Shown here one piece after another: positions 1,261-23,854 of a stretch of DNA of 64,000 nucleotides. How positions within the stretch are numbered: position 1 is the first letter of the stretch; each line of letters opens with the position of its first letter. The notes beneath the pieces were generated by a model that saw only the letters and a list, made by a program, of their open reading frames with translations, made no database searches and had not been told where the DNA came from. Position numbers and translations under genes: made by a program. The DNA comes from Candidatus Multiplicimicrobium inquinatum (GTDB lineage: Bacteria; Omnitrophota; Omnitrophia; Omnitrophales; Aquincolibacteriaceae): the NCBI GenBank assembly GCA_002344825.1, contig DDUN01000003.1:1775-65774 (forward strand), given 5' to 3'.

Positions 1261-2231
1261 AAAAAATCAATTTTATTTTAGGAACTACCCTCGCGGGTTT
1301 CTTTCTGATTTCACTTCAGAACGGGGCCCTGGACGCGGGGATTGGCAAGCTTTTAACAGGAAAAATGTCTTCCGCTGAAAGCGCCGTGTTTTGGCATTTG
1401 CGCTTTCCCCGAAGTCTGCTGGCAATTCTTGTCGGAGCCGCTTTGGGGCTTTCCGGCGCGGCGATGCAAGGCCTTTTGCGCAATCCTTTGGCAGAGTCAA
1501 GCGTTTTGGGAATTTCAAGCGGCGCCGTGCTTGGCGCGATGATCGCGCTTTATTCCGGTTTAACGGTATGGGGAATTTGGATTTTACCTCTGGGAGGTTT
1601 TTTTGGCGCGCTTGCCGCGGCCGCGCTGGTTCTTGTTTTCTGCTTTCGCCATACCAGTTTGCTCGGACTTATTTTAGCCGGAACCGCGCTGAATACGCTT
1701 TTCTTTGCCCTGAGCAGTTTGCTGCTTAGCTTTTCAAAAAATCCTTATGCCGTGCTCGAAGTGATTTACTGGCAAATGGGCTCATTTGAAAATCGAACGT
1801 TAGCGCAAACAGCCGTCGTCGCGCCTTGGATCATTTTAGGTTCGTGGATGCTTTTGCGCACAGGTTCCTCACTTCAGCTTTTGACTTTGGGTGAAGACGT
1901 TGCGCGCAGCAGTGGAGTTTCTGTCTCCAAGACGATGCGGCAGGTGATTATGGGAACCGCGGTTGCTGTTGGCGCGGCAGTTTCGGTTTGCGGATTGATT
2001 GGTTTTGTCGGGTTGCTGGTGCCGCATTTAGTTCGCCCGTGGGTTGGGCATGATCCCGGCAAATTGCTTTTTCCAAGCGCGCTTGCGGGCGCGGTGTTTT
2101 TGTTGATGGCGGACACTTTTTGCCGTTTTTCGGTTTTTCCGGTTGAACTCAAAATCGGAGTTTTGACCGCGCTTCTCGGCGCGCCTTTTTTTATTTATTT
2201 GGCTTTTAAAACCAAGGCACAGCTGACATGA
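1257..2231 (+). CDS. btuC: FecCD-family ABC permease (BtuC-like)
   Basis: About 320 aa, polytopic and hydrophobic, typical FecCD length and composition. ATGA start/stop overlap with the flanking genes. Confidence 0.75.
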   Translation: MKKINFILGTTLAGFFLISLQNGALDAGIGKLLTGKMSSAESAVFWHLRFPRSLLAILVGAALGLSGAAMQGLLRNPLAESSVLGISSGAVLGAMIALYSGLTVWGIWILPLGGFFGALAAAALVLVFCFRHTSLLGLILAGTALNTLFFALSSLLLSFSKNPYAVLEVIYWQMGSFENRTLAQTAVVAPWIILGSWMLLRTGSSLQLLTLGEDVARSSGVSVSKTMRQVIMGTAVAVGAAVSVCGLIGFVGLLVPHLVRPWVGHDPGKLLFPSALAGAVFLLMADTFCRFSVFPVELKIGVLTALLGAPFFIYLAFKTKAQLT

Positions 2232-2902
2232 AATTTCTTTGCGAAAAATTAAATTGTGGCTTCAGAGAAAAGCAGGTTTTAAAAAATATTTCCGGTAAAT
2301 TCGAAGCCGGAAAAATAACAGCGATATTGGGTCCTAACGGGTGCGGCAAATCAACTTGGATCAGAGCTTTGTTGGGATTGGTCAAACTCCAATCAGGTAA
2401 GGTTATTGGGTTGCCTGAAAAAAAAGGGTATTTGCCTCAAAAAAAGGAAATTTACTGGCCGCTTACTTGTGAAGCAATTGTGGAGTTGGGTTCTCGCGCC
2501 TCGGGGCTCGGGGCTTCGTCTCTGGATCGGTTGGGGATTGGGCACTTGAAAGATAAAAGAATCGATGAAGTTTCAGGAGGCGAGCGCACCTTGGTTTTAT
2601 TGGCGCGAGCTTTGCGTGATAGACCCGACTTGATTATCGCGGACGAGCCTGTTGCTGAACTTGACCCTAAGCATCAGATGCGTGTGATGCAGGCGCTCAA
2701 AGAGGAAGCCGCTCGCGGTGCGGCGGTGATTGTTACGATGCATGACATTCAGTTGACTGCTCAATTTGCCGATTTTGTTTTCTTAATGCGTGATGGGAAT
2801 GTTGTTTTTCAAGGCGCTCCTGATGCAGTTCTTAATCCCGGGAATTTAAAAACTGTTTTTGGAGTTATTTTTGTTGAAGACAAAGGATTGTATGTCCGTT
2901 AA
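2228..2902 (+). CDS. btuD: ABC transporter ATP-binding protein (BtuD-like)
   Basis: Walker A GPNGCGKST, ABC signature VSGGERTLVLLARAL, Walker B LIIADEP. Confidence 0.85.
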   Translation: MKFLCEKLNCGFREKQVLKNISGKFEAGKITAILGPNGCGKSTWIRALLGLVKLQSGKVIGLPEKKGYLPQKKEIYWPLTCEAIVELGSRASGLGASSLDRLGIGHLKDKRIDEVSGGERTLVLLARALRDRPDLIIADEPVAELDPKHQMRVMQALKEEAARGAAVIVTMHDIQLTAQFADFVFLMRDGNVVFQGAPDAVLNPGNLKTVFGVIFVEDKGLYVR

Positions 2903-3482
2903 AAATTTGAAAACGAAAGCGCGCGATCAAGCTCCGCGGAAGCACGCTAAGCCGAAGCGCGCACCTGATAAAGGACTTATTGTCGTTTATACGGGAGATG
3001 GAAAAGGTAAGACCACCGCGGCGATGGGAACCGCGTTGCGGGCTTTGGGTTATGGTATGAAAGTGGCGGTGGTTCAATTCATTAAGGGAACCTGGCCGTC
3101 AGGGGAAGAACAAGCTCTTAAAAAAATAAAGGGATGTCAGTTTCACAAAATGGGCGAAGGCTTTACTTGGGATACAAAAGACTTTGAGCGCGACAAGTTG
3201 AAAGCGGATGAAGGTTGGAAGTTAGCTCAAAAGTATATTCAAGACTCAAAGACACAGCTTGTTATTCTGGATGAAATTAATTGCTGTTTAAAGTATGGTT
3301 TTCTTGATTTGAAAGACATGTTGCGCGCCCTGAAAAAAAAGCCTCACATGAAGCACGTGTTTTTGACCGGGCGCGGAGCGCCTAAAAAACTGATCGAATT
3401 AGCCGATCTTGTAACGGAAATGAAATGTATCAAACACCCATACGATAAAGGAATTTGGGCTCAGCGCGGCATCGACTTTTGA
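2892..3482 (+). CDS. cobO: Cob(I)yrinic acid a,c-diamide adenosyltransferase (CobO/BtuR/CobA family)
   Basis: P-loop YTGDGKGKTTAAMG, ~196 aa from the ATG at 2892. The longest ORF begins at 2859, so the start is uncertain. Confidence 0.75.
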   Translation: MSVKNLKTKARDQAPRKHAKPKRAPDKGLIVVYTGDGKGKTTAAMGTALRALGYGMKVAVVQFIKGTWPSGEEQALKKIKGCQFHKMGEGFTWDTKDFERDKLKADEGWKLAQKYIQDSKTQLVILDEINCCLKYGFLDLKDMLRALKKKPHMKHVFLTGRGAPKKLIELADLVTEMKCIKHPYDKGIWAQRGIDF

Positions 3483-3489
3483 AAATTTA

Positions 3490-3601
3490 TTGAAAATGAT
3501 TTGTCTGCTTCGTTGCATTCTTCGCTTCCTTGTGCGGCGTATTGCTGCATACGCCTCCGCAGGCGCTCAAATGCGCCTTGCATCCAAACCATTTTGAATA
3601 A
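3490..3601. repeat. REP-like large imperfect palindrome, copy 1 of 3
   Basis: Conserved core cttgtgcggcgtaT-tgctgc-Atacgcctccgcagg with self-complementary outer arms (ttgaaaatgatttg … caaaccattttgaa). Located at the 3' end of cobO. Confidence 0.75.
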
Positions 3602-3637
3602 ATTTTTGAGATTCCAAAGAGCTGGTTTTGGAATGAA

Positions 3638-3931
3638 TCAGCGAAAACTGATTTTGATTTGTGGTTTGTCCCAATAAGGGCAATGACGACAGCCTTGGTT
3701 GCAGCAAAAACCACGGTCTAAAAGATAGTATTCGGTGTGGACCGTCATCTGTGTGAATGGATCTTCGTAAGTTTTTAATTTTGCTGCGCAAGCTTTGAGA
3801 TGAGCCGCGACAGTTTCCGCAGGTAAATTTGGTTCACGGGAAGTCATATCAGAATTATACTCGTCAAAGTTCATCGGAGTAGAGCAAAGTTTCTCTGTTA
3901 TTGGAAGTATCCCCGACATAAAATAAAGCAT
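3638..3931 (-). CDS. Small cysteine-rich protein of unknown function
   Basis: ORF of 97 aa with the cluster CCNQGCRHCPYW. Its start overlaps the start of the divergent gene at 3930, so the true start may be an internal Met (MNFDEY…). Confidence 0.4.
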   Translation of the reverse strand: MLYFMSGILPITEKLCSTPMNFDEYNSDMTSREPNLPAETVAAHLKACAAKLKTYEDPFTQMTVHTEYYLLDRGFCCNQGCRHCPYWDKPQIKISFR

Positions 3932-5534
3932 GCCGCTTTTCCTCGGATTTATTAATAATCGATTCGTTTGGTTATCTTTTTTATTTTTCTCTCCGTTGGT
4001 TATCTATTTTCCTGTGTTGGGGCATGGGTTTTTGCACTTTGATGACCGCCAAATTGTGACTCAGAACTCCGAAGTACTGAAGGGGGTTACATGGGAAAGC
4101 ATAAAATGGGCTTTTCTTTCCTGGGACACGGGCAATTGGATTCCGCTGACCTGGATAAGCCATATGCTGGATGTGCATTTTTTCGGTCTTAAAGCAAGTT
4201 GTCACCACGCTGTAAGTATTCTTTTTCATTCCGTGAACGGAGTTTTGATTTTTCAGCTTTTTAATCGCATGACTCAACGGCATTTTTTGAGTTATGGTGT
4301 CGCGCTGGTTTTTGTTTTTCATCCGATGCATATTGAATCAGTCGCGTGGGTTTCAGAGAGAAAGGATGTGCTTTCAACTTTTTTTACACTGCTCTCATTT
4401 TTGTTTTATTTGTTTTACGCGCAAAAGTCCAAAAATTATTTTGCGGCATACCTGGCAAGTGTTTTGTTTTGTGCTTTTGCTTTAATGTCCAAGCCGATGG
4501 CCGTTGCTTTGCCCCTGCTCCTGCTTGTTTTTGACTATTGGCCGCTGGCCCGAATTAACGGGATGAAAAGCTTTTGGAACTGTCTGCCTGAAAAAGTCCC
4601 CATGATGCTGATGGTGTGCGGTGTTGCGGGTGCGACATGGCTTGCGCAGAGTCAAATTGGGGCTGTTTTCAGCTTGTCTGAAATGTCGATGAGTTATCGT
4701 TTTGAGATGCTCTTTGCCGCTTTGGGTAGTTACAGCTACAAGTTTTTAATACCTATTCAGCAGACTATTTTTTATCCGCCCTTTTCTGATCAAGAAATGC
4801 ATTGGAATGCTGCGTTGGGATTGCTGCTTTTTCTGATGTGGGGTGTGTTTGCGGTGCAGCGCAAAAGCGCGCGCTGGATTTTTACCGGCGGAATGATTTT
4901 TTTTGTTTCACTCTTTCCGGTTTTGGGTTTGGTGAAAGCCGGCGGTCAGTCTATTGCGGAACGTTATACTTATTTTGCCTATACAGGATTGGCGGTATTA
5001 CTTTTTTGGGGTGCCGCCGCATTGATTTCAGCCAAGCCTAAGGCGAAGCCATGGATTATTACATTTTTTATAGTTTGGAGTTTGCTGGGGCTGCTTTTAA
5101 GCGGTGTACGTGTGTATGAGTGGCGCAGTACCGAAGCACTTTTCCGGTCTGCTGTAAAAATTCACCCTCATAATCACGTCGCGCATAAAGTTTTGGCGGA
5201 TCACGCTTATGCTCAGGGTGATTTGCCGGGTGCCGCAAAGTATCTTGTTCAGGGATTAGAAAATTTACCTGCCGAAGCTGACTCCGCAAGACCTCAATAT
5301 GAGCTGAATTTAGCGATTATTTACCATCAGCTGGGGGAAATGGAACGGGCTACAAAATTTTATGAGAGAGTTTTGGTGAAAGAGCCTTTCCGCTTTGATG
5401 TGCGGGTTACTTTGGGCGATATTTATATTAAATTGAAGCAGCCCGCGCAGGCAAAAATGCACTATGAATTTTTGCTTCGCATTTTTCCTGACAACCAAGA
5501 TTTTCAAAGGCGGCTGGAAGAGTTGCGCGGTTGA
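3930..5534 (+). CDS. Polytopic membrane protein of the PMT/GT39-like (GT-C fold) family with C-terminal TPR repeats
   Basis: N-terminal multi-TM region with an HFDD motif in the first loop. C-terminal ~150 aa are TPR-like (AYAQGDLPGAAKYLVQGLE…, LGEMERATKFYERVL…). This architecture is common among bacterial DUF1736/PMT_2-TPR proteins. Confidence 0.55.
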   Translation: MPLFLGFINNRFVWLSFLFFSPLVIYFPVLGHGFLHFDDRQIVTQNSEVLKGVTWESIKWAFLSWDTGNWIPLTWISHMLDVHFFGLKASCHHAVSILFHSVNGVLIFQLFNRMTQRHFLSYGVALVFVFHPMHIESVAWVSERKDVLSTFFTLLSFLFYLFYAQKSKNYFAAYLASVLFCAFALMSKPMAVALPLLLLVFDYWPLARINGMKSFWNCLPEKVPMMLMVCGVAGATWLAQSQIGAVFSLSEMSMSYRFEMLFAALGSYSYKFLIPIQQTIFYPPFSDQEMHWNAALGLLLFLMWGVFAVQRKSARWIFTGGMIFFVSLFPVLGLVKAGGQSIAERYTYFAYTGLAVLLFWGAAALISAKPKAKPWIITFFIVWSLLGLLLSGVRVYEWRSTEALFRSAVKIHPHNHVAHKVLADHAYAQGDLPGAAKYLVQGLENLPAEADSARPQYELNLAIIYHQLGEMERATKFYERVLVKEPFRFDVRVTLGDIYIKLKQPAQAKMHYEFLLRIFPDNQDFQRRLEELRG

Positions 5535-5560
5535 TTGATCAACCGCGCAGACCAAATGGA

Positions 5561-6220
5561 TTAGGTAACAGTAACTTTTTTTGCCGCCTCTTCCTTTGTT
5601 ACTTTTGGGAGCGTAATTTCTAAAACCCCATTTTTATATTCAGCCTGAATATTGGTTTCATCTACGGGACCCGGCAGGCGCAGACTGCGGGAAAAAGAGC
5701 CGTAGCTTCTTTCTTGGGCGTAAAAGCTTCCTGATTGCTCTTGGTTAATGGTTTCACGCTGGCCCTGAATGGTTAAAATTTCACCGCGCACAGTAATATC
5801 GATTTTGTCCTTATCAAGTCCCGGCATGTCAACCTGCACGATATAGGCATTGTCTTTTTCTTCCATGTCCATTAAGGGCATAGCATCAATTCCCATATGC
5901 TGATTCATTTGACTCATCATACTTGGCAGGCTTGCCATAAAGCCGCCCATCATTTGATTCATGCTCTCCTGCATGTCATCAAACATGGACCAAGGGTCTT
6001 GATAGTGTGCCCGCGGCGATGTCTGAAAGATCGCTTTTTGCGGGAACGAGGATGCGTAAGTGTTTTGTTTCTGTAAGGTATCCAGCGTCTCTTTTGCTTG
6101 GCTCTCTTTTTTATTTAAAAAGTAAATAAATCCTGCGGTCTGGCTCACAAGTAAAACAGCAAGCAGGATGCTGATAACAACAAGCCAATTTACTTTTTTT
6201 TCTTGAGTTGTGTTTGTCAT
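5561..6220 (-). CDS. Hsp20/alpha-crystallin family protein with an N-terminal transmembrane anchor
   Basis: N-terminal TM segment (WLVVISILLAVLLVSQTAGFIYFL) and a C-terminal alpha-crystallin domain (…ERSYGSFSRSLRLPGPVDETNIQAEYKNGVLEITLPK). Confidence 0.75.
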   Translation of the reverse strand: MTNTTQEKKVNWLVVISILLAVLLVSQTAGFIYFLNKKESQAKETLDTLQKQNTYASSFPQKAIFQTSPRAHYQDPWSMFDDMQESMNQMMGGFMASLPSMMSQMNQHMGIDAMPLMDMEEKDNAYIVQVDMPGLDKDKIDITVRGEILTIQGQRETINQEQSGSFYAQERSYGSFSRSLRLPGPVDETNIQAEYKNGVLEITLPKVTKEEAAKKVTVT

Positions 6221-6277
6221 AAATCACCTCAGTGTAAGCAAAATGGAGCTCTCGGGGAGAGCTCCATTGAATTGCGC

Positions 6278-6727
6278 TTAATCGATTTTAACTTCAATTT
6301 TTTTTGATTTTTCTTTGGGAGATTTGGGCAAGACCACCTCCAGAACACCATTTTTATAACTCGCCTGTACTTGCTCCGCGTTGATTTCAACCGGCAAGGT
6401 GAAAGCGCGGGCAAAGCTTCCATAACGGCGCTCAGAATAGTGATACCCTTTCTTCTCTTCTTTTCTCTCTTCTTTGCGTTCACCGCGAAGAATGAACCGG
6501 TTGCCTTCAACGGCAATGTTGAAATCTTCACGCTTCATTCCCGGTAAGTCCGCATGAACGAGGTATTCTTGTTCTTTTTCAGTGATTTCAACTTCCGGAT
6601 CAATGCCCGTCGACCATTGCTGATTTGACGGCGGAACTGCGGCAAAAAAACGATCCAGATCAGTTTGAAAGTCTTTCAGAACCTCAAAAGGATCATAAGC
6701 TTCTTTTCTTCTTTGAATGAATGTCAT
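6278..6727 (-). CDS. Small heat-shock protein, Hsp20 family
   Basis: 149 aa with the alpha-crystallin motif …ERRYGSFARAFTLPVEINAEQVQASYKNGVLEVVLPK. Confidence 0.85.
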   Translation of the reverse strand: MTFIQRRKEAYDPFEVLKDFQTDLDRFFAAVPPSNQQWSTGIDPEVEITEKEQEYLVHADLPGMKREDFNIAVEGNRFILRGERKEERKEEKKGYHYSERRYGSFARAFTLPVEINAEQVQASYKNGVLEVVLPKSPKEKSKKIEVKID

Positions 6728-6909
6728 AAAGCACCTCCGTTTTATTTATTTTGAATAGCTCTATAAGCTTTTATTCAATCTGCATGCCAAGTTTCAAAGG
6801 GGAAGGTGGCGTCATAAAGAAGCTGGCGTGTAAAAAAATGACACAATCTGTTTCAGATTTTCACAGTTAACAGATTTCCCGTAGTCCACGCTTATGTTAG
6901 GATTATTCC

Positions 6910-7494
6910 GTGGAAATAAACGAAAGACTTTTTTTAGGGCTGCATCTAGACCCTCTTTTTAAGGAGGAAATTACGGCGCATGCAAAGAAGCTGCGGGAAC
7001 TGTATCCTAATCAAAAATGGGTGAATCTAAGGCATTTTCACTTTACGATTCATTTTTTGGGAGATTCGACTTCGGAACAAAGACAAAAAATTGCGCGAAT
7101 CGCGACCGAGATAGCTTCTCAGACAAAGCCTTTCAATGTAGCTCTGGAAGGGATGGGGGCTTTTCCAAGTTTGAACAAGCCCCGTGTTGTATGGGTTGGC
7201 GCCGCTAAGGAATGTTTGCCCGTCCTTGATAACTTTTACCAAAGGATCACAGCCCCGTTGATTGCGGAGGGTTTTCCCGTGGAGCATGAAAGCTTTACCC
7301 CGCACGCGACTCTTTTTCGTGTTCGGGCGGATAGCCTTATTCAATGGAACCCCGAAGTTTTTCAGTTTCCAAAAACTCCGCTGCGGATGGTTGATCGGCT
7401 CACTTTGTTTAAAAGCACCTTAACGGAATGGGGCGCAGAGTATGCTCCAATTGAAGAATATCCATTTCGAAATGAACCGTTTGGCTTTGATTAA
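6910..7494 (+). CDS. thpR: RNA 2',3'-cyclic phosphodiesterase / 2'-5' RNA ligase (LigT/ThpR, 2H phosphoesterase)
   Basis: Two HxT/S motifs (HFTIHF and HATLFRV), ~190 aa. Confidence 0.75.
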   Translation: MEINERLFLGLHLDPLFKEEITAHAKKLRELYPNQKWVNLRHFHFTIHFLGDSTSEQRQKIARIATEIASQTKPFNVALEGMGAFPSLNKPRVVWVGAAKECLPVLDNFYQRITAPLIAEGFPVEHESFTPHATLFRVRADSLIQWNPEVFQFPKTPLRMVDRLTLFKSTLTEWGAEYAPIEEYPFRNEPFGFD

Positions 7495-7526
7495 GATGTA
7501 TTTTAGAGCTTTGTGTCTTTTGTCAG

Positions 7527-7829
7527 TTGTCGGTGGTCTGGCCTCTGATCTATACTCTGATTATGAGTGATCCATTCAATGGTGAAGAAATCCAGTTTCC
7601 GGTGGTATGCTATTTTAAGATCATTGCCGATAATATGCCGGGCGTTCGAATGATGCTTGAAAAAAAACTGCAGGACTTGGGCGTTGTAAATCCCTTGTCA
7701 GAGGGAACTCATTCTTCGGGCAATAAGTATGTGACTTATAACCTTGAAGTCAAAGTTGCCAGCAAGGAATATATGGCCCAGCTGGATCACGCTATCCGCA
7801 CCACCAAGCATGTTCGTATGGTGCTGTAA
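7527..7829 (+). CDS. YbeD/DUF493-family small protein
   Basis: About 100 aa; FPVVCYFKIIADNMPGV… resembles the UPF0250/YbeD family. Confidence 0.5.
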   Translation: MSVVWPLIYTLIMSDPFNGEEIQFPVVCYFKIIADNMPGVRMMLEKKLQDLGVVNPLSEGTHSSGNKYVTYNLEVKVASKEYMAQLDHAIRTTKHVRMVL

Positions 7830-7949
7830 TTCGCTGAAAAAGCTTCGTCTGCGTCGTTGCATGCGCATTCGCTTGTGCGGCGTAGGTTTCACTACGCCTC
7901 CGCACTCACTTCCATGCGCCTAGCAGCCCAAGCTTTTTGATCGAATTAA
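7828..7949. repeat. REP-like large imperfect palindrome, copy 2 of 3
   Basis: Core cttgtgcggcgtaGgtttcaCtacgcctccgcac, with outer arms taattcgctgaaaaagctt … aagctttttgatcgaatta. Located at the 3' end of the YbeD-like gene. Confidence 0.75.
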
Positions 7950-8007
7950 GAAGAGAAATTAAAATTTCAAGTGGCGCGGGGACCTATTCGGTTTGTTTTT
8001 GGCTAGT

Positions 8008-8217
8008 TTATGGTCTATAGTCTAGTGCTCGGATGCGTGCCAAGGCTTCGATGACATTTTCACGAAAACCGAAAGCGTTTAAGCGAAAATAGTTTTCTCT
8101 GTGGGGGCCGAATCCCGCTCCCGGAGTTCCTGCAATGTTGGTCTTGCATCTAAGTTTTTTTAAATCAATTAAAAAGTATGATGTTTTTGCGCACCGATAA
8201 CGTTTGTGTATGGTCAA
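8008..8217 (-). pseudogene. Decayed C-terminal fragment (~65 aa) of an LL-diaminopimelate aminotransferase paralog
   Basis: Translation …[39 protein letters not shown] aligns with the C-terminus of the intact dapL at 11712-12941 (…[39 protein letters not shown]). No upstream coding continuation is present. Confidence 0.7.
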
Positions 8218-8336
8218 GAGGGCGCTCAGATTTTAAATTGCCGTTCAATTACTTAAAAATATTGTTGTTCTTGACCTGTTAGGTGGGGGCCATATGCCTA
8301 ATCAGGCTTATCACAAATAAGTTTGTTGCATCAAAG

Positions 8337-8352
8337 TGATACTATAGTATCA
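8337..8352. promoter_or_regulatory. Perfect 16-bp palindrome tgatactatagtatca, 8 nt upstream of the 8360 start codon
   Basis: Read directly from the sequence. It overlaps the expected RBS/-10 region of the small membrane-protein gene, so it is a candidate operator. Confidence 0.45.
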
Positions 8353-8359
8353 TTACAAT

Positions 8360-8590
8360 ATGTTTAAAATAAAATCTGCTACCCTTGTTATTTGCGTACT
8401 TGTTTTCTTCTTGAATTTGTCTTTGTGTGATATGGCCTTTGCGTATATTGATCCTGGAGCTGGGAGCGCTTTATTTCAGCTTATTATAGCTGGTCTTGCC
8501 GGCCTTTTATGGATAGTTAAGGTTTATTGGCAGAAAATTATAAGTTTTTTTTCTAGGAAAAAAAACGGCAAGAAAACGCCTCCCCAATAA
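8360..8590 (+). CDS. Small membrane protein (76 aa, two predicted TM helices) of unknown function
   Basis: Two hydrophobic segments and a basic C-terminal tail (RKKNGKKTPPQ). No recognisable family. Confidence 0.4.
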   Translation: MFKIKSATLVICVLVFFLNLSLCDMAFAYIDPGAGSALFQLIIAGLAGLLWIVKVYWQKIISFFSRKKNGKKTPPQ

Positions 8591-8600
8591 TCTGTTATTT

Positions 8601-9983
8601 ATGGATCAAAAAAAGATTTTGATCGCCCCGCTTTCCTCGTCTTTTCGTGATCCCGCAGGTTTTGTGTTTAAGGCTTCTCAAGGTATTCAGCGTGCCGTAA
8701 CACATTATGGCCGTGCTTATTACGATGTTCTCATGCAGTCTCCTCTTTATGAGGAGTTGGTTCAGAAAAAATGGCTTGTGGCACACCGTGAGGTTAAAAA
8801 TGAAGACGGGAATTTCTATAAGATTTTAGAGCCTAAGCAAATTCCCGTCATTACCTATCCGCATGAATGGAGTTTTTCTCAGTTTAAAGATGCGGCTCTT
8901 TTAACACTGAAGATACAGCTTCGTGCGATGGATTTGGGACTGAGTCTGCGTGACGCGACACCGTACAATATTCAGTTCGTAGGAACGGATCCCATTCATA
9001 TCGATACGCTTTCATTTGAGAAATTAATTAACCAGCCTTGGAAAGCGTATAAACAATTTTGCGAAATGTTTTTAGCTCCGCTGGCTCTCATGTCCGAAAG
9101 ATCGCTGAATTTTAATAAGTATATGGCGGTAGACTTAAATGGCATGGATTTACTTTTATCAAGCCGGCTTCTTCCGTGTCTTTCTTGGCTTAATCCGATA
9201 TATCTGATACATTTACATTTACACGCATTGAGTCAAAAAAAATATGCTGATTCATCTCATGACACCAAAAATATAAGCATGTCTCCGCAGCGTCTCAAGA
9301 TGTTAATTCACGGGTTATTTGATGGTGTTCAGTCCATAAGGCTTCGCAATCATAAGACAGAGTGGAGCCATTATTATGAGTCTCAAACTCATTACGGCGA
9401 AGATGCGCATAATTTTAAAGCCGATCAAATTAAGCGTTGGATTCTTGATATAGCGCCGAAGCAAACTTTAGATTTGGGGGGCAATGACGGCAAATTCAGC
9501 CGTATTGCTTCCGAATTGGGATCTTATACGCTGTGCGTGGATTTGGATGCGAATTGTATTGAAAGAAACTATCTCAGCTCAAAAACAAATGGAGATAGAA
9601 ATATGCTCCCTGTTTTTCTCGATTTGTCAAAACCTTCTCCACAAATTGGCTGGAGTTGCACAGAGCGGGATAGCTTTTTTAACAGGGTTGCGCCAGATTT
9701 AACCATGGCCCTTGCCTTGATCCATCACCTCAGAATCAGCTTATCCGTTCCACTTGATCTAATTGCATTGTTTTTTAGCAAAATCAAAGGTTATCTTATT
9801 ATTGAGTTTGTGCCGAAAGATGATCCCATGGTTCAAAAACTGTTACTTACACGTGAAGATATATTTTGGGATTATTCAGAAGAGAATTTTAAAAAGTGCT
9901 TTGGTCAGTATTTTCGATTTGTTGAGCAGGTCCAGATTCCTGGGACAAACCGCAATCTCTGTTTGCTTCAATCCAATTCATGA
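8601..9983 (+). CDS. Two-domain protein: N-terminal protein-kinase-like fold (LPS/Kdo-kinase or APH-like) fused to a C-terminal class I SAM-dependent methyltransferase
   Basis: Catalytic-loop-like LSLRDATPYNIQF (compare HRDxxPxNI) followed by IHIDT (DFG-like). C-terminal methyltransferase motif I LDLGGNDGKF…CVDLD. Confidence 0.45.
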   Translation: MDQKKILIAPLSSSFRDPAGFVFKASQGIQRAVTHYGRAYYDVLMQSPLYEELVQKKWLVAHREVKNEDGNFYKILEPKQIPVITYPHEWSFSQFKDAALLTLKIQLRAMDLGLSLRDATPYNIQFVGTDPIHIDTLSFEKLINQPWKAYKQFCEMFLAPLALMSERSLNFNKYMAVDLNGMDLLLSSRLLPCLSWLNPIYLIHLHLHALSQKKYADSSHDTKNISMSPQRLKMLIHGLFDGVQSIRLRNHKTEWSHYYESQTHYGEDAHNFKADQIKRWILDIAPKQTLDLGGNDGKFSRIASELGSYTLCVDLDANCIERNYLSSKTNGDRNMLPVFLDLSKPSPQIGWSCTERDSFFNRVAPDLTMALALIHHLRISLSVPLDLIALFFSKIKGYLIIEFVPKDDPMVQKLLLTREDIFWDYSEENFKKCFGQYFRFVEQVQIPGTNRNLCLLQSNS

Positions 9984-11551
9984 AGCTATCGTTTAAAGAT
10001 CATCCGGTTTTATATCCTTTTTTATTTTCAATTTACTCTCCGTTGTTCATTTTTTCAAATAATGCAAGCGTAATAAGCCTCGGTTTATTTTTTGAAATCT
10101 TAATGGTTGTTTGTGCTGGCGTTACTGTTTTGTATTTGATCCTGAAACAACTCCTAAAAGATTCTCATCGCGCCGGATTTTTTTTTATTGTGATTTTGGC
10201 TTTTTTTATGCTGTATGACAATTTATTCGATTTTGGGATCGGCTATAAAATCGGCGCTTTTCTTGTTTGGCGCCACAAGTATATCCTCCCGGCTTGGACG
10301 CTTATCTTTTTTTTATTCGCCTACTGGTTTCTGATTAAAAAAGTAAAGGTTTCACCAAATTTGACTGGAATTTTAAATGTGGTAGGTCTTGTTCTTGTTT
10401 TGTTGAGCGTATTCAACACTGTTCTTTCGCTGAATGATAAAAGCATACAGAGGAAAGAGGTGGCTGACCCTAAAATAATCCGATCAGAGAGAGGGGTTGT
10501 CGCTGAATCAAGCAATCCCGATATTTATTATATTATTTTAGATATGTATGGCGGGAATGAGGTTCTGCTAGATTATTTTAATTATGACAATACGGATTTT
10601 TATGCTCAGCTCAGAAATCGGGGTTTTTTTGTCGCGGACCGCAGTGTTAGCAATTATGACATTACGCGGCGATCGCTTCCGTCATCTCTCAATATGCGGT
10701 ATCTTGATTTGGAGAACGATTCACAAGATCAAAGTGATTATGCTGATTGGCATAGCGAACTGGTAAAGAACAGTGAGGTTTCTCGTTTTTTAAGAGCGAA
10801 AGGTTACCGATATATCAATGTTGGTTTTAAAAATGAGTATGCCGATGAAAATTATTTTGCCTCTGCGCGTGAAGCAAATGCTTTTGAAAGGTATATTTAT
10901 TACAAAAGTTTATTGGAGCGAACCTTGTTTAAGTATCCGTTTGGATTGTATAGCCCGTCTATCGGAGCAAGTTATCGGAATTCGATCAGTTATCAGTTTA
11001 ATGTTATGCGTGATATCGCCCGATTGGAAGGGCCTAATTTTGTTTACAATCATATTATTTCGCCGCATTGGCCGTATGTGTTTGATAAAAACTGTGAGCC
11101 CACATCTGTATTAAAATCTATCCGTATGGGACAGGGCAAAATGTATACGGACCAGATCCAGTGCGTGAACATTAAAACCCTTGAAGCCATCGATGCGATT
11201 CTTAAGGAGAAAAAGGGAAATGTTGTCATTCTGATTCAGGGGGATCATGGACCCGGCTTCGGATCGGCATCAGATTTTCGCCTGAATCCGGAATGGGTCA
11301 AGCAAAGACATATGATTTTAAACGCGTATTTTTTCCCGCAGGGAAAAATAAGCGAACAGCTTTATGGAGGAATCAGTCCGGTCAACTCATTTAGAGTTGT
11401 CTTTAATGAACTATTTAATCAGAACTTGGAGTTATTTCCCGATAAGGCATTTGCTTTTGAGAATAGCAGGCTTATTGATGTTACAAGCTTGATTCAAAAA
11501 CATGCTAGTAAGCAGAATCAAAGAAGTGTTAGTGATTTAAATCAACCCTAA
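9980..11551 (+). CDS. Membrane-anchored sulfatase/alkaline-phosphatase-superfamily enzyme (LtaS/EptA/OpgB-like phospho-transferase)
   Basis: Five N-terminal TM helices, then a soluble domain containing ILIQGDHGP (the Asp-His metal-ligand pair of the sulfatase family) and an IYYIILDMYGG N-terminal core motif. Confidence 0.5.
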   Translation: MKLSFKDHPVLYPFLFSIYSPLFIFSNNASVISLGLFFEILMVVCAGVTVLYLILKQLLKDSHRAGFFFIVILAFFMLYDNLFDFGIGYKIGAFLVWRHKYILPAWTLIFFLFAYWFLIKKVKVSPNLTGILNVVGLVLVLLSVFNTVLSLNDKSIQRKEVADPKIIRSERGVVAESSNPDIYYIILDMYGGNEVLLDYFNYDNTDFYAQLRNRGFFVADRSVSNYDITRRSLPSSLNMRYLDLENDSQDQSDYADWHSELVKNSEVSRFLRAKGYRYINVGFKNEYADENYFASAREANAFERYIYYKSLLERTLFKYPFGLYSPSIGASYRNSISYQFNVMRDIARLEGPNFVYNHIISPHWPYVFDKNCEPTSVLKSIRMGQGKMYTDQIQCVNIKTLEAIDAILKEKKGNVVILIQGDHGPGFGSASDFRLNPEWVKQRHMILNAYFFPQGKISEQLYGGISPVNSFRVVFNELFNQNLELFPDKAFAFENSRLIDVTSLIQKHASKQNQRSVSDLNQP

Positions 11552-11711
11552 TATTTCGAAAAATTAAATCCCTGAATCGCCACACGCATGAGATTGCGGT
11601 GACGTTCTTGAATTTTGTACATATTGGTATGTTGTGCTTAATAAGAAAGGTGAGTGGTGCGTTATTCCTTTCATGCCCACCGCAGCCTGCTACCGCATCG
11701 GTTGAGACGAG

Positions 11712-12941
11712 CTAAAACGGTAACTTTTGAACGCGGGCAATGGCCTCGATGACGTTATCTCTGAAACCAAAAGCACTTAAACGGAAATAGCCCTCTCCAC
11801 TTGGGCCAAAACCAGATCCGGGGGTTCCTACGATATTTGCTTTTTCGAGTAGTAAATCAAAAAAGTCCCAAGACTTCATATTGTTAGGTGTTTTGAGCCA
11901 AACATAAGGCGCATGTATGCCGCCGAAGGTTTCAATGCCGGCTGATTGCAAGCCCTCGAGAATAAGTTTGGCATTTTCCATATAGTAAGAAATCATTTCT
12001 TTAACTTCTTTTTTACCGGCATTACTGTAAACAGCTTCGGCACCGCGCTGAATCGGATAAGACACCCCATTAAATTTGGTGGCATGGCGGCGATTCCAAA
12101 GACTATGAACAGATACTTTTTCACCTTTTTCATTTTTTGCGAACAAATCTTTTGGAATTACCGTAAAGGCACAGCGGGTTCCGGTGAATCCGGCTGTTTT
12201 CGAGAAGCTGCGGAATTCAATTGCCACTTCGTGCGCGCCTTCAATTTCAAAGATAGAGTGTGGCAAAGAATTGTCGGAAATAAAAGCTTCATAAGCTGCA
12301 TCAAAAAGAATGATGGCATCGTTTTTCTTCGCGAAATCAACCCAGCTCTGCAGGTCCTTGCGGTCAAGTACCGTGCCTGTCGGATTGGCAGGCGAACAAA
12401 GATAAATTAAATCCACTTTTTCTTTCGGAAAAGCCGGCTTGAAATTATTTTCAGCTGTGGCGGGCATATAAACAAAGCCCTCGTACTTACCATCTTTAAA
12501 AGAGCCACTGCGTCCTGCCATGACATTTGTGTCGACATAGACGGGATAAACGGGATCAACCACGGCAATTTTTGAATCAAGGCTGAATATCTCCTGAATA
12601 TTTCCGCAATCGCACTTAGAGCCATCCGAGACAAAAATTTCATCCGCATCAACTTTTGCTCCACGAGATTGAAAGTCGGTTTTAGCGATTGCCTCTCTGA
12701 GAAAGTCGTAGCCTTGTTCCGGGCCATATCCTCGAAAAGTTTTAGCATCGCCCATTTCATCCGTTGCTTTTTTAATCGCATCACGAATCGAGGTGGGGAG
12801 CGGAAGAACGACATCACCTATACCAAGACGAATAATTTTAGCTTGTGGGTTTTTGGCGGAGAATTCTTTTACCCGACGTCCAATTTCGGGAAAAAGATAG
12901 CCAGCCTGCAGTTTTTGGTAGTGAGAGTTGATTTTTGTCAC
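11712..12941 (-). CDS. dapL: LL-diaminopimelate aminotransferase (DapL type)
   Basis: N-terminus [24 protein letters not shown] matches the DapL signature start. PLP-aminotransferase motifs [11 protein letters not shown] and [12 protein letters not shown] are present. Confidence 0.8.
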
Positions 12942-13119
12942 GAGAAGGGTCTCCTGAATTAATTAGTAATGCCGATAAAAACCGAAGTGGAATTATACTT
13001 TATTCAATATGTCTAACCACGCATATTTACAGCTGGTCACATCAAAATAATAAATTATATTGATAAAGATATCTAATTATGACAAATTATAGCTAAATAA
13101 AACAGCAATAATCAAGAAG

Positions 13120-14943
13120 ATGAAAAAATTAAAACAGTTTGTAGTCAATTTAAAGAGGCTTCGCCTTTTTCTCAAAAAGCTTGATTTAGAACCTGCGCAT
13201 CTTTTTTTTCCCTCCGTGCTTTCTTTGGGCGCAGCGCTACTTGAAGGGGGGGCGTTTGCCTTGTTGGTGCCAACCATGCGCGGGATTATCGAGGCAAATT
13301 ATCAATTTGCATATTCTGCTTCTGGTTTAGGTTGGGTGTTTCAGATATTTCCCCAGTTATTTTTAAATAACAACACGGCTATATTTATTTTCTTGGTTGC
13401 GCTTATTCTTGTTTTTATTATTATGAAAAATGTATTTGCTTACTCGGCAGCAGTGCTTATTTCCCATCGCATGTGGCGTTTTAACCACCAACTACGCTGC
13501 TTGATTTTTAATGCGTATGTTGGTTTTCGAAAAAGTTTTTTTGATAAAAACAGCGTTGGAAATTTACAAAATATTCTTACTGGTTATACCGAGCAAATTG
13601 CTGTTCAATTTAAACTATTTCAGAATGTGTTGTTCCATTTTTTTGCGCTTATTTCTTATCTAATTATTATGGTGTTTATCTCATGGCGCGTTGCGCTTTT
13701 TACCATAACGCTATTACCAATTATAATTTTTTCATTTAAAAAGTTGATTGGTCAAATTAAATTAAACTCTAATCAATTTGCGATACATTTTTCTGAGTTG
13801 GGAAAAAAAATTCTTAACTCGCTTTCGTGTATGCCGCTTATCAAGGCATCGAGTTCCGAGGAAAAAGAGAGAAAATGGTTTGAACGCACAAGCGATGAGG
13901 TGCGCAAACAGCAGATTAATATGGATGTAAGAATCTTATTAATTCCTCCCATGCAGGAAGTTTTTTTTGTTGTTTTATTATTTGTGTTAACAGGCTTTGT
14001 TGCGTATTTGTCAATCCACAGTCAGGATGGAAGTATCGCAGGGTATCTTGTGTTTTTCGTTATAGCAAGGAGGGCCATGAATAGCATTGGGCAACTTACT
14101 GTTTTTCAAGCGAATCTTGCATCAATTGCTGGGCCCTTAAGGCAAATCATGAAGATTTTTGAAGAAAGAAAAATAAATGAAGAAATTAGTGGCGGGGAGA
14201 TATTTGTTCGTTTTGACGACAGAGTGATAATTAGAAATCTTACTTTTTTTTACCATGAGCGAGACGTGCTCAGAGATGTTTCATTTGAGGTTAAGAAGAA
14301 TGAAATGATTGCCATTGTGGGAAAGACAGGCTCTGGCAAATCGACCTTAGCACAGCTTTTTATGCGTTTCTACGAACCGCCAAGAGGAACCATTTTTATA
14401 GATGGAAAAGATATTTTTGATCTGCAAATAGCATCTTGGAGAAAAAAAATTGCGTTTATTACGCAAGACAATTACCTGTTTGATGCCAGTTTTGAAGTTA
14501 ATGTGAAATACGGATGTGAGCCTGAGCCGTTAAAGGCAGAAATCTTAGATGCTTTGGAGAAAGCGCAGCTCAGTGGGCTTTTAAGCAAGCTTCCGCAGGG
14601 GCTTGCAACCGAGATTGGAGAGCGCGGTATCCAGCTTTCTGGTGGTGAAAGACAGCGCTTGTCTTTGGCGCGCGCTATTTTGAGAAAGCCAGAAATTCTT
14701 ATTTTGGATGAAGCCACAAGTGCTCTTGATTCTCAAACAGAACAATTGGTTCAGCGGGCTATTCTTGAAACTGTGAAAGGCAAAACGTCGATTGTGATAG
14801 CTCATCGACTTTCCACGATAAAGAATGCCGATAAAATCATTTTGCTGGAGGAAGGTAGGATTGTAGAGCAAGGCTCTTTTGATGAGTTGATTGCCTTGAA
14901 TGGGCGGTTTAAGTCATATTGGATGCTGCAAGAGCAGGGATAG
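13120..14943 (+). CDS. ABC exporter with fused permease and ATPase (MsbA/lipid-polysaccharide exporter-like)
   Basis: Six-TM N-terminal half; Walker A GKTGSGKST, signature LSGGERQRLSLARAIL, Walker B ILILDEATSALD. It is the first gene of the polysaccharide locus. Confidence 0.85.
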   Translation: MKKLKQFVVNLKRLRLFLKKLDLEPAHLFFPSVLSLGAALLEGGAFALLVPTMRGIIEANYQFAYSASGLGWVFQIFPQLFLNNNTAIFIFLVALILVFIIMKNVFAYSAAVLISHRMWRFNHQLRCLIFNAYVGFRKSFFDKNSVGNLQNILTGYTEQIAVQFKLFQNVLFHFFALISYLIIMVFISWRVALFTITLLPIIIFSFKKLIGQIKLNSNQFAIHFSELGKKILNSLSCMPLIKASSSEEKERKWFERTSDEVRKQQINMDVRILLIPPMQEVFFVVLLFVLTGFVAYLSIHSQDGSIAGYLVFFVIARRAMNSIGQLTVFQANLASIAGPLRQIMKIFEERKINEEISGGEIFVRFDDRVIIRNLTFFYHERDVLRDVSFEVKKNEMIAIVGKTGSGKSTLAQLFMRFYEPPRGTIFIDGKDIFDLQIASWRKKIAFITQDNYLFDASFEVNVKYGCEPEPLKAEILDALEKAQLSGLLSKLPQGLATEIGERGIQLSGGERQRLSLARAILRKPEILILDEATSALDSQTEQLVQRAILETVKGKTSIVIAHRLSTIKNADKIILLEEGRIVEQGSFDELIALNGRFKSYWMLQEQG

Positions 14944-14990
14944 GGATGGGTTTTGTGCCTCTAAAGATATTGTAAAAATACGGATGACTA

Positions 14991-15560
14991 GTGATGCCGA
15001 TTTGTAGGTTTTGGATTATGGCGGGAAATAGATTAGAGTCCTATTTTGCAACACTTATAGTGCGAGTGCGTTTTTATGGGTGTATTCATGCAAAAGGGAA
15101 GGTAGAGTTTGGCTTCGGGGTCCATTTTATTCCGTTTAATGCAAATAAGTTTTTAAGTGTTGTTTTTGATGGAGGTAATCGAATTGGAAATGGGACTGTA
15201 TTCCAAGGTACCGGTCAGATGACATGGGGAAAGAATTCTTACTGCAGAGGATATTGTGTTTTTGGCACTAATGAAAAAATTGAAATTGGCGCAAATGTTA
15301 TGATAGCTGATGCGGTTTCAATAAGAGACACAGATCATGTTTTCAGCGATATTTCCCGCCCATCTATGGTTCAGGGAATAAAAACAGCCCCCGTTATTAT
15401 TGAAGACAATGCTTGGATAGGGCATGGTGCCGTTGTGCTAAAAGGGGTTCGCATAGGTAGGGGTGCTGTTGTTGGGGCTGGTGCAGTCGTGACTAAAAAT
15501 GTCAAACCCTATGATGTCGTTGCAGGCATTCCAGCAAGAATTATTAGTAAAAGGACTTAG
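14991..15560 (+). CDS. Hexapeptide-repeat (left-handed beta-helix) sugar O-acetyltransferase
   Basis: C-terminal hexapeptide repeats IGANVMIADAVSI…IGHGAVVLKGVRIGRGAVVGAGAVVTKNV…VVAGIPARI. The true start is probably internal to the longest ORF. Confidence 0.75.
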   Translation: MMPICRFWIMAGNRLESYFATLIVRVRFYGCIHAKGKVEFGFGVHFIPFNANKFLSVVFDGGNRIGNGTVFQGTGQMTWGKNSYCRGYCVFGTNEKIEIGANVMIADAVSIRDTDHVFSDISRPSMVQGIKTAPVIIEDNAWIGHGAVVLKGVRIGRGAVVGAGAVVTKNVKPYDVVAGIPARIISKRT

Positions 15561-15569
15561 CTGATTTAA

Positions 15570-16457
15570 ATGGTGAAGCCTTCTTTTTTTGTGGTGGGCA
15601 CGCAAAAAGCCGGGACCACTACTCTTCATGAGATATTGAGACAGCACCCACAAATTTTTTTACCCAAAACTAAAGAGGCGCACTTTTTTGATTTTGACGA
15701 TACATTTACAAAAGGATTTGACTGGTGGGTAGAGACATTTTTCAAGGAATGTAATTCGGGAAAAATAGCTGGTGCAATTACACCCGAATATCTTTTTTAT
15801 CCGGAAGTGCCCTTGAGGATTAAAGAGATGTTAGGGGTAGATGTGAAAATTATTATAATTCTTCGCAATCCTGTTGATCGGGCATTTTCACACTATCTAA
15901 TGACAAAAAGACGGGGGCTTGAAGCTTTAAGTTTTGATCAGGCTGTGGCAAAAGAGGCTGAAAGGTTGAAGGCGGGAAGAGACTTTGAAAGAGTGCATTA
16001 CAGCTATTTCTCTCGTGGTTTGTATGCTAAGCAAGTAAAACGCTATCTTGATTTGTTTGGTGCGAAAAATGTATTAATTTTGAAATTCGAGGAAGATTTC
16101 TTGAAAGATAAATTAGCCACAATCGAAAAAATTTTGCGATTTCTGAATGTCTCGGTTATTCAATTAGATGTTGCAAAGAAAAGTAATTCCGCGTCGCGAC
16201 CAAGAATGCCTGCGTTGAGCAGGTTTTTGTATTCAAGGAACTGGTTTAAAGAAAAAATTAAAAGAATTATTGTGTCGAAGGGGATAAGAAAAGAAATAAA
16301 GAATGTGTTAGTGTTTTTAGATCGTTTGAACCAGACAAAGACGAGATTAGAATATTTAACGTTGTATCAGAGAAAAAAGTATCTAAAATTATTCCACGAA
16401 GACATTAAGAAGTTAAGCCTGTTGACAGCGATGTCGTTTCAAGAGTGGTATGAATAG
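15570..16457 (+). CDS. Sulfotransferase (PAPS-dependent)
   Basis: 5'-PSB motif VVGTQKAGTTTL and 3'-PB motif ILRNPVDRAFSHY. Confidence 0.8.
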   Translation: MVKPSFFVVGTQKAGTTTLHEILRQHPQIFLPKTKEAHFFDFDDTFTKGFDWWVETFFKECNSGKIAGAITPEYLFYPEVPLRIKEMLGVDVKIIIILRNPVDRAFSHYLMTKRRGLEALSFDQAVAKEAERLKAGRDFERVHYSYFSRGLYAKQVKRYLDLFGAKNVLILKFEEDFLKDKLATIEKILRFLNVSVIQLDVAKKSNSASRPRMPALSRFLYSRNWFKEKIKRIIVSKGIRKEIKNVLVFLDRLNQTKTRLEYLTLYQRKKYLKLFHEDIKKLSLLTAMSFQEWYE

Positions 16458-17442
16458 TTTGCTCAATCAAGGTTTTTTAGAGAAGCGTATTGCGATTGTT
16501 ATTCTTAATTATAATAGCGCAAAAGATTTAAAAATATTTTTAGCTCAATTAATTAGCCAAAGGGGGGCGTTTCTTTCTTTTGTGATAGTAGATAATGCAT
16601 CGCAGAAAGATTCTGTCGAAAGTTTTCAGTCTTGGCTTGCAAGCTGGCGACCCGATGCTTTTTGCGGGACACCCCGTCAGGCTGAAGAATGGATAATGCA
16701 GTACCCACAAATTGCCAGCAGAGATAAAAATATTTTTTTTATAAAAAATAGTGAAAACCGAGGTTTTTCTGCCGGAAATAATATTGGAATTCGGGTGGCA
16801 GAGAAATTAAATGTCGATGCTGTGCTAATCACCAATCCCGATATTTGTATTGAAGGCAGTGAGTGCGTGGCTGATTTGGGACGCCAGCTTTTTTCTAGCG
16901 CCGAATTTTGTGTGGCAGTACCTCGTGTTTTATATTTTGGGAAGGACCAAAATCCTCGTTGGGAGCCAACGACCTTCTGGGAGGAGTTGTTTTGGTTGTC
17001 GCCATTTCCATTTGCCAAAATAAGGCGATCTGATTTAACTGAAAACTTGAAGCCTCATGAAATTGACCAGTTTGCGGGTTGTTTCTTCATGGTAAAACTA
17101 GATTTTTTAAGGAAAATAAATTATTTAGATGAAAGGTTTTTTCTTTATCGAGAAGAAGCTATGCTGTCAGTAAGGGCCAAAACAAACGAACAAAAAATAC
17201 TGTATGTCCCTCAGGTTTGTGTCAAGCATGAAAGCATCCACTCAGATCAAAAGTCCCATCTATTTTTGCGGCAGTACCATTTGCTTCGAAGTAAAAAAAT
17301 ATTCCTAGAAAACCACACAGCATTTGGAGCGCTCGGGCGTTTCTTGATTTTGTTTTTTAATGCACTTTGGGCGTTATGGCCTATTTTTAAAAATATTTTC
17401 TTAAAAAGAACCAGAAAAAATGAGAAGCGTAGGCAAGGCTAA
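16450..17442 (+). CDS. Glycosyltransferase family 2
   Basis: IAIVILNYNSAKD…VDNASQKD N-terminal GT-A motifs; the C-terminal region contains GCFFMV. Confidence 0.75.
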   Translation: MNSLLNQGFLEKRIAIVILNYNSAKDLKIFLAQLISQRGAFLSFVIVDNASQKDSVESFQSWLASWRPDAFCGTPRQAEEWIMQYPQIASRDKNIFFIKNSENRGFSAGNNIGIRVAEKLNVDAVLITNPDICIEGSECVADLGRQLFSSAEFCVAVPRVLYFGKDQNPRWEPTTFWEELFWLSPFPFAKIRRSDLTENLKPHEIDQFAGCFFMVKLDFLRKINYLDERFFLYREEAMLSVRAKTNEQKILYVPQVCVKHESIHSDQKSHLFLRQYHLLRSKKIFLENHTAFGALGRFLILFFNALWALWPIFKNIFLKRTRKNEKRRQG

Positions 17443-17445
17443 ACG

Positions 17446-18525: not shown

Positions 18526-18526
18526 A

Positions 18527-19549: not shown

Positions 19550-19587
19550 TGAGTTGATTTTTAATCGAGATGGTTGGAGATATTTGA

Positions 19588-20361
19588 ATGAGACCTAAGT
19601 TAGAAGTGTTAGTTTCATGCATGTATCAAATCGATATGTCAATTGTAGAGAGAGCGAATATTTCATCAAGTGCTGTTGTTGTTAATCAATGTGATAGAGA
19701 CTTGTATGAAGAGATTGCTGTGGGCGAAAATAGAATTAGAATGTTCTCATGTTTGGATAGAGGTTTATCGAAAAGTAGAAATAAAGCGTTAAAAGAGTCC
19801 GCGGCTGACATTTGTTTGTTGTGCGATGATGATGAACATCTTGAAGATGATTATGTTTCAAAAATACAAGAAGCATATGAGAAATATCCTGATGCGGATA
19901 TTATCGCATTTAGGCTTGAGCGATCGTCTCGTTCTTATTGGACTGTCCCTAGAAGAATTAACTATCTCAACTCTTTGAAAATCTCTTCGTGTCAAATCAG
20001 CTTTAAACGAAATAGCATTATCGGACGCGGCATTTTTTTTGATGAGACATTTGGCGCTGGAACAAGGTACAGTTTTGGCGAAGAAAATATTTTTTTGTAT
20101 GAATGTTTAAAAAAGGGGCTCAAAGTATATTATCTTCCAATAAAAATAGCTTTTGTTGCTGATGAAAAATCAACATGGTTTAATGGGTTTACAACGCAAT
20201 ATTTTTTTAACCGGGGTGTAATTACTCGAAGGTATATGGGGAGATTTTTTGCAATTCTATACGCTATTTATTTTGCTGTTTTTAAGTACTCCATTTATAA
20301 ATCAGCGACTCCCTTTCGAACAGCTTTGGGAAAGATGATCGAAGGTGTTTGGAGAGATTAG
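19588..20361 (+). CDS. Glycosyltransferase family 2-like
   Basis: RGLSKSRNKALKESAADICLLCDDDEHLED matches the GT2 substrate-binding/DxD region. Confidence 0.55.
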   Translation: MRPKLEVLVSCMYQIDMSIVERANISSSAVVVNQCDRDLYEEIAVGENRIRMFSCLDRGLSKSRNKALKESAADICLLCDDDEHLEDDYVSKIQEAYEKYPDADIIAFRLERSSRSYWTVPRRINYLNSLKISSCQISFKRNSIIGRGIFFDETFGAGTRYSFGEENIFLYECLKKGLKVYYLPIKIAFVADEKSTWFNGFTTQYFFNRGVITRRYMGRFFAILYAIYFAVFKYSIYKSATPFRTALGKMIEGVWRD

Positions 20362-20519
20362 ACTTGACCGCCAAACATCAAAAGATTTGGAAGTGAGGGA
20401 GACTTTTTTGTGGAGCGGCATTACACTTTGGTTTGCAAAAACGCAGATTTTTTTTAAGTAAAGCATAGTCTGTTTTTTCGAAGAAAATAAGACAAGTTCT
20501 TTTTTGTAAGGAGCTCAAT

Positions 20520-23850: not shown

Positions 23851-23854
23851 GTAA

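Follow-up and report, generated by a model that had tools for sequence, protein, structure and literature searches.

A dapL 3'-end remnant beside an envelope-modification cassette: a probable recombination scar at a surface-polysaccharide locus of Omnitrophota

In O-antigen and capsule loci, gene cassettes are replaced through recombination in the conserved genes that flank them. Another kind of exchange has been described for rhs and T6SS effector-immunity loci, in which the displacement of C-terminal regions (the 3' ends of the genes) was attributed to homology-facilitated illegitimate recombination, or HFIR (Kirchberger et al., 2017; PMC5361080). In the model put forward there, the foreign DNA recombines by homology within the conserved 5' or middle part of a gene and introduces a new 3' end along with new downstream genes; the old 3' end is shifted further downstream and persists as an orphan piece of unchanged orientation. 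The same paper cites Jackson et al. (2009; PMC2935791), de Vries and Wackernagel (2002; PMC122324) and Prudhomme et al. (2002; PMC122325).

The locus that we describe here lies in a stretch of 64,000 nucleotides (the window) from Candidatus Multiplicimicrobium inquinatum, a member of the Omnitrophota. Its features follow each other in the order two Hsp20 genes, LigT, DUF493, a palindromic element, a dapL fragment, a cassette of three genes, an intact dapL, an ABC exporter gene and a surface-polysaccharide cluster (Table 1). As in the displacement known from rhs and T6SS loci, an intact gene, acquired DNA and an orphan 3' tail in the same orientation are found together, the tail on the ancestral flank. 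Unlike in those loci, the gene is a housekeeping gene of amino-acid biosynthesis, in the lysine pathway, and no polymorphic toxin, the orphan tail is single and not part of an array, no immunity-like gene is linked to it, and the payload is an envelope-modification cassette. The comparison with O-antigen and capsule loci is similarly double-edged. Shared features are a slot that varies among close relatives between conserved anchors (DUF493 and dapL), the proximity of glycan genes of lower GC and the mosaic identity of the anchors; but here the variable region includes an essential biosynthetic gene that is mosaic too, and the slot, with its 0-3 genes, is small and found on the side of dapL that faces away from the main cluster. 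Our best reading is that recombination at a glycan-locus hotspot has left an ordinary scar; events of this kind are known and ask for no new mechanism. The fragment is probably the 3' remnant of a dapL that once stood directly against DUF493, and marks a displacement event.

Table 1. Features of the dapL region of the window and of the corresponding or similar regions in other genomes (positions refer to the window unless another sequence is named).
Feature	Positions	Strand	Remarks
DUF493/YbeD-like gene, conserved left anchor of the variable slot	7527..7829	+	Pfam PF04359, E 4.5e-10
Palindromic REP-like repeat, 122 nt	7827..7948	+	follows the DUF493 stop immediately; belongs to the ancestral DUF493-dapL spacer
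dapL 3'-terminal pseudogene fragment	8008..8229	-	corresponds to DapL residues ~336-409; BLASTP and tblastn
AT-rich non-coding stretch, 130 nt	8230..8359	+	GC 0.32; holds the junction; no DapL homology in any frame
Cassette gene 1, 76-aa small hydrophobic protein	8360..8590	+	ORF
Cassette gene 2, 460-aa SAM-dependent methyltransferase-like protein	8601..9983	+	weak Methyltransf_23
Cassette gene 3, 523-aa membrane protein with sulfatase-family (alkaline-phosphatase superfamily) domain	9980..11551	+	PF00884, E 4.5e-8
Spacer downstream of intact dapL	11552..11711	.	160 nt
Intact dapL (LL-diaminopimelate aminotransferase)	11712..12941	-	TIGR03542, 614 bits
Three-gene module	window 8360-11551; L169 7789-11030; L170 8001-10974; L171 1304-4297		
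DUF493-dapL slot, L172			empty; DUF493 and dapL convergent; spacer 261 bp
DUF493-dapL slot, L173			empty; DUF493 and dapL convergent; spacer 49 bp
DUF493-dapL slot, L174			empty; DUF493 and dapL convergent; spacer 40 bp
DUF493-dapL slot, L175			empty; DUF493 and dapL convergent; spacer 206 bp
DUF493-dapL slot, L001			228-aa methyltransferase-like gene
DUF493-dapL slot, sister population S (L176, L177, L179-L181)			229-aa homologue of the L001 gene, 38% aa identity
DUF493-dapL slot, L002			polysaccharide pyruvyl-transferase-like gene, looks split
DUF493-dapL slot, window			three-gene cassette plus dapL fragment; unique among the genomes compared

The intact gene scores far above the TIGR03542 cut-off of 364.7 bits, and its product is a true LL-diaminopimelate aminotransferase. 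A first-pass annotation of this DNA had proposed that the fragment aligns with the C-terminus of this enzyme, and this is borne out: the 69-codon open reading frame at 8008-8217 (minus) matches residues 342-409 of the 409-aa intact DapL with 38/70 identities (54%; BLASTP E 2e-20), a value at which we reject chance similarity. With four DapLs of the Omnitrophota clade as tblastn queries, homology reaches ~8229 (residue ~336), and upstream of this point the same four queries find no further DapL homology in any frame. The stop codon of the fragment (8008-8010) is almost at its native position; ~17% of dapL is left, and the first ~335 residues of the enzyme are missing. The nucleotide identity of ~70% between the copies that had been given earlier holds for a 105-nt core (70%, 8035-8139 against 11733-11837), but over the whole codon-anchored alignment the value is ~60%. 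An assembly artefact was considered and rejected, because 7800-8400 is 100% identical in five assemblies of the same population, obtained from several samples and sources. The earlier statement that 7950-8360 is otherwise free of reading frames also holds, for ORFs of at least 40 aa. Homologous to DapL of the host clade (the four clade proteins are its four best matches among 160 DapL C-termini), deprived of essential parts and substituted at conserved positions, the fragment is a dead, truncated and non-functional dapL remnant, and annotation should label it as a pseudogene remnant and not as a small ORF.

The surroundings of dapL in related genomes place this remnant in context. DUF493, whose 88-aa core starts at 7563 in the window, is 85-95% identical in amino acids among relatives. 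Whether dapL stands next to this gene elsewhere had been named as an informative comparison, and in L172, L173, L174 and L175 it directly adjoins it; the empty slot is the simplest ancestral state. Since the contents of the slot differ among related genomes, the space between DUF493 and dapL is a recombination hotspot that borders the surface-polysaccharide cluster. When window 7780-8240 is aligned with L172, the end of DUF493, the palindromic repeat (L172 has a homologue of it in the same location) and the fragment prove collinear with the end of DUF493, the repeat and the 3' end of the intact dapL of that genome. The fragment therefore occupies the ancestral position of dapL, and is still contiguous with its ancestral downstream neighbourhood. 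The spacer downstream of the intact copy holds no REP copy and does not resemble the one that follows the fragment; past the stop codons, the alignment of the two dapL copies loses similarity. In the slot of L002, the pyruvyl-transferase homologue (11244-12069, minus) is present as two ORFs of 212 aa and 75 aa, where a pseudogene and a sequencing frameshift are both possible. A scan of metagenomes for dapL gave a single extra relative, L089, whose synteny is unrelated (toxin-antitoxin and CRISPR genes) and uninformative about the slot.

That this is the scar of a replacement or insertion next to dapL, as the first-pass annotation had read it, is supported by the empty slot of L172-L175 and by the lack of a two-copy relative. 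The same annotation had held that two full dapL copies in related genomes would make the fragment a simple decayed tandem duplicate. No relative has two, and neither a second dapL nor a dapL fragment is present in any slot relative examined (L001, L002, L172-L175 and S). A tandem duplication of dapL in place, after which the DUF493-proximal copy lost its 5' 83% and degenerated and the cassette was inserted between the two, would fit their direct orientation at a distance of 3.7 kb. It is nonetheless unlikely: seven independent slot states include no two-copy relative, the downstream flanks of the copies share no similarity, and the scheme needs a duplication, a deletion and an insertion against one displacement.

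The allele type of the fragment bears on the same question. Its motif GFGP-H-x-E-N-Y, with His encoded by CAC and Asn by AAC, finds its counterpart in the dapL of S (a sister population from the same samples) and of L172, both of which read PHGENY (His CAC or CAT, Asn AAC). The window's intact dapL reads PSGEGY, with AGT and GGC at the positions of the fragment's His and Asn, and the remaining clade members also read PSGEGY, with AGT plus GGC or GGT at those two codons. PH.EN is found in 0/161 other DapLs, and only the fragment, S and L172 carry it; almost all of these 161 C-termini have GEGY or a near variant where the fragment has RENY. Because PH.EN is present in the fragment and absent from the intact copy, the two have different histories; a neutral derivative of the present intact copy would not converge on a motif whose two codons lie five nucleotide differences away from AGT/GGC, and the fragment therefore represents the allele type of the nearest relatives. 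Within the clade, its last 38 codons are closest to L172 (82% of amino acids, and 87% at both codon positions 1 and 2), and this core is 82% identical in amino acids to the L172 allele versus 68% to the intact copy, so that the two copies of the window are not each other's closest relatives, as a tandem duplicate would have them. The fragment thus descends from the dapL allele type of the nearest relatives, and the 3' part of the intact copy does not. On account of the collinearity with L172 and of the missing PH.EN in the intact copy, we prefer to call the fragment the displaced 3' terminus of a different or earlier dapL allele that stayed at the ancestral position, and not a paralogue born of duplication.

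The earlier label of old paralogue remnant is right, then, as to age and not as to paralogy. Third codon positions of the fragment are saturated against every allele compared (17/38 against the S allele), and exact matches of the fragment to the 3' end of the intact copy reach 8 nt at most, which is why we regard the fragment as old or divergent and agree with the previous claim that it is no fresh target-site duplication.

Between the copies, the three plus-strand genes reported earlier are confirmed at the positions listed in Table 1. The first has no Pfam or NCBIfam match. The second has a Methyltransf_23 match that is below the Pfam cut-off (E 1.1e-3) and no NCBIfam match; it has 7969 scored homologues in many phyla, the nearest of which outside the population is 55% identical. 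A methyltransferase homologue followed by a gene with a Sulfatase domain occurs in L169 and L170, within glycosylation and polysaccharide clusters; an ORF of 62-76 aa precedes the homologue in L169 and L171 and is not called in L170, and in L171 the third gene is truncated by the end of the contig and has no recorded domain. The module that recurs in this way consists of a hydrophobic ORF of ~60-76 aa, a methyltransferase-like gene of ~460 aa and a sulfatase-family membrane protein gene of ~530 aa. None of these three unrelated contigs has a dapL near the module. Because it is found in glycan clusters of unrelated genomes that lack a neighbouring dapL, the trio is a self-contained and portable envelope-modification module: a widespread and uncharacterised set of genes (small membrane protein, 460-aa methyltransferase, sulfatase-family membrane protein) that moves as a unit. 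The AT-rich stretch ahead of the cassette is presumed to be its promoter region; scans for promoters and terminators returned nothing usefully above the shuffled expectation. The composition of the cassette, which the first-pass annotation had proposed to compare with the flanking genes, is not diagnostic: its GC of 0.38-0.40 is roughly within one standard deviation of the window mean (0.415 +/- 0.037) and resembles that of the neighbouring polysaccharide cluster.

The topology of a restored gene, an insert and an orphan 3' fragment in the same orientation is also that of islands that integrases insert at the 3' ends of genes. One could accordingly imagine an island that entered at the 3' end of dapL carrying a surrogate tail, whose integrase was later lost and whose far att site is the native tail. 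This is very unlikely. Pfam finds no integrase, recombinase or transposase domain in the three ORFs of the cassette, the flanking non-coding DNA has no other ORF of at least 40 aa, and among the Pfam domains listed for the neighbours of the module in L169-L171, where the trio lies within glycan clusters, there is no mobility gene. The longest exact match of 8 nt between the copies, within an identity of 70% over 105 nt, leaves no att-like core repeat, and the divergent stretch of the intact gene (~1000 nt) is far above the size of a surrogate tail.

That stretch becomes visible when the window is compared with S. Over 2186-7822 the two are mostly 96-100% identical, with patches of 78-92%; in the comparison with L179 and L176, blocks of 100% identity, several hundred bp each, alternate with these patches. 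From ~6950, within LigT, identity is lowered to 83-96% up to 7822, and it collapses at the stop of DUF493. On the far side of the slot, the first ~73 codons of dapL and the intergenic region between dapL and the ABC exporter gene (~12720-13080) are again 96-99% identical to S, whereas the other ~1000 nt of the intact dapL are at 70-85% (sliding identity against L176). Identity thus changes in a step inside the intact dapL, at ~12720-12740; the step is seen against S, but short near-identical blocks recur elsewhere in the flank, and the near-identical 350-bp block at the 5' end of dapL could be an unrelated short recombination tract. A mosaic test of the intact dapL against L001, L002, L089 and L172 made no breakpoint visible, third positions being near saturation. 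The ABC exporter gene is 60-72% identical to that of S.

Closeness in dapL and in LigT also disagree. Over the whole dapL gene, S is 83% identical to L172 and 81% to the window, whereas in LigT the window and S share 90% and L172 only 62%. It follows that dapL is itself subject to recombination, and that one or both of the alleles of the window and of S are not vertically inherited. More generally, the alternation of blocks suggests frequent recombination of short tracts between co-occurring Omnitrophota populations, which would mean that populations of one bioreactor exchange short pieces of DNA with each other. Beyond dapL, at ~13120-28000, runs a long plus-strand surface-polysaccharide cluster with a GC content of 0.34-0.41, against 0.43-0.51 in the housekeeping flank; it comprises genes for an ABC exporter, an acetyltransferase, a sulfotransferase, GT2 proteins, an epimerase, a Wzy-like protein and a methyltransferase. 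As far as L176 reaches (~5 kb past dapL), its content is unlike that of S, with the ABC exporter as the sole shared gene.

As the identity to S breaks at ~12720-12740, the DNA that was replaced probably comprised not just the 3.3-kb cassette but most of the intact dapL too. From this arrangement we infer an order of events, a donor and an illegitimate join, as follows. The incoming block would have consisted of most of a foreign dapL allele (from ~codon 73 to the stop), the spacer downstream of it and the envelope-modification cassette. At one end, the block would have entered through a homologous crossover in the 5' or middle part of dapL, and at the other through an illegitimate join at ~codon 336 of the resident dapL, so that the resident 3' tail would have been pushed 3.7 kb away from the now hybrid, functional gene. 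Such an event would be of the HFIR type, the C-terminal displacement known from rhs and T6SS loci. Several findings stand against this explanation. The 350-bp block at the 5' end of dapL could be an unrelated tract, as noted above. The cassette donor was not found: an exact-protein look-up returns the same population only (an Omnitrophota MAG from bioreactor sludge, GCA_035436425.1), and the nearest homologue is the 55% identical one. Moreover, the fragment has decayed unevenly, a pattern not expected from one neutral history of decay.

Finally, with 17/38 at third codon positions against the S allele, a recent displacement of an S-like allele is excluded and extra events are needed. The scar is old: either it predates the split of the window and S, whose slot was later replaced, or it was imported already formed, within a larger block. 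The second possibility is a variant of the displacement explanation with another place and time for the displacement. The scar would have been made in another lineage, and the whole segment from ~6950 in LigT to ~12730 in dapL would then have entered the window's lineage en bloc by ordinary homologous recombination. We hold this to be possible, although not probable. The lowered identity to S of 83-96% from ~6950 to 7822, the sharp step inside dapL and the age of the fragment relative to the near-identical clonal frame would all follow from it; but LigT and DUF493 differ from S by ~9-12% and dapL by ~22%, against L172 LigT diverges faster than dapL, and the donor is absent from the genomes sampled. 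The disproportion of the divergences between LigT/DUF493 and dapL means that more than one layer of exchange is needed, and import en bloc still requires it.

Read in this way, the scar is a clean and datable trace of cassette exchange in a little-studied and uncultured phylum: a housekeeping gene, dapL, lies inside a hypervariable cell-envelope locus and recombines along with it.

The uneven decay deserves attention. A well-kept core of 38 codons (8008-8139) is followed by a heavily decayed part (8140-8229), whose 31 codons nearer the junction are 35-39% identical in amino acids, versus 82% in the core (Fisher p 2e-4 to 4e-4), and which has a 5-codon deletion and a 2-codon insertion, both in frame. 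EALARIRA and P.GENY of the core also occur in real DapLs. Compensated frameshifts were tried as a cause and do not explain the pattern, because alternative frames match DapL no better. It is possible that a later homologous tract from the DUF493 side overwrote the core, or that the part near the junction was remodelled into AT-rich DNA upstream of the cassette (GC 0.38 versus 0.485).

One might also read in this pattern a retained function, the 69-codon frame or its DNA serving as a micro-protein, as a homology anchor for the exchange of cassettes or as a regulatory region. The frame is open, its indels keep the frame, and its last 38 codons are far better preserved (p 2e-4). Yet its start codon is TTG, and the 30 nt before it hold nothing like a Shine-Dalgarno sequence; it lacks the first ~335 residues of the enzyme and has changed the near-universal GEGY to RENY, no relative keeps such a fragment, and a limited word-indexed protein search with the fragment as query gave nothing beyond two short pieces from the C-termini of real DapLs, with neither a conserved small ORF homologous to it nor a near-identical source allele. 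We consider a function of this kind most improbable. Nor would we put much weight on the idea that the 38 core codons, the REP-like element and DUF493 are renewed again and again by homologous recombination with empty-slot alleles of the population, which we deem very doubtful; if it were true, the orphan tail would be a standing homology anchor, a landing pad for swapping envelope-modification cassettes, and the Omnitrophota would maintain a recombination device beside an essential gene where we see a passive scar.

The palindromic element that separates DUF493 from the fragment has a predicted folding energy of -47.1 kcal/mol (z -2.4), and its 31-nt core recurs at 63389-63419. It belongs to a family of ~125-nt palindromes, with copies at 7827-7948, 63338-63470 and 3478-3610 of the window, at 4308-4445 of L172 and at 1292-1425 of L179, which directly follow the stop codons of unrelated genes (DUF493, a P-II/GlnB-like gene and CobO) and share an invariant inner hairpin, TTGTGCGGCGTA..TACGCCTCCGCA. 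Rfam gave no match in 7400-13200, a range that covers the first copy only. In an alignment of the five copies, RNAalifold predicts 47 pairs, of which 23 show compensatory changes, and these palindromes may represent REP/BIME-like elements or an Omnitrophota terminator family.
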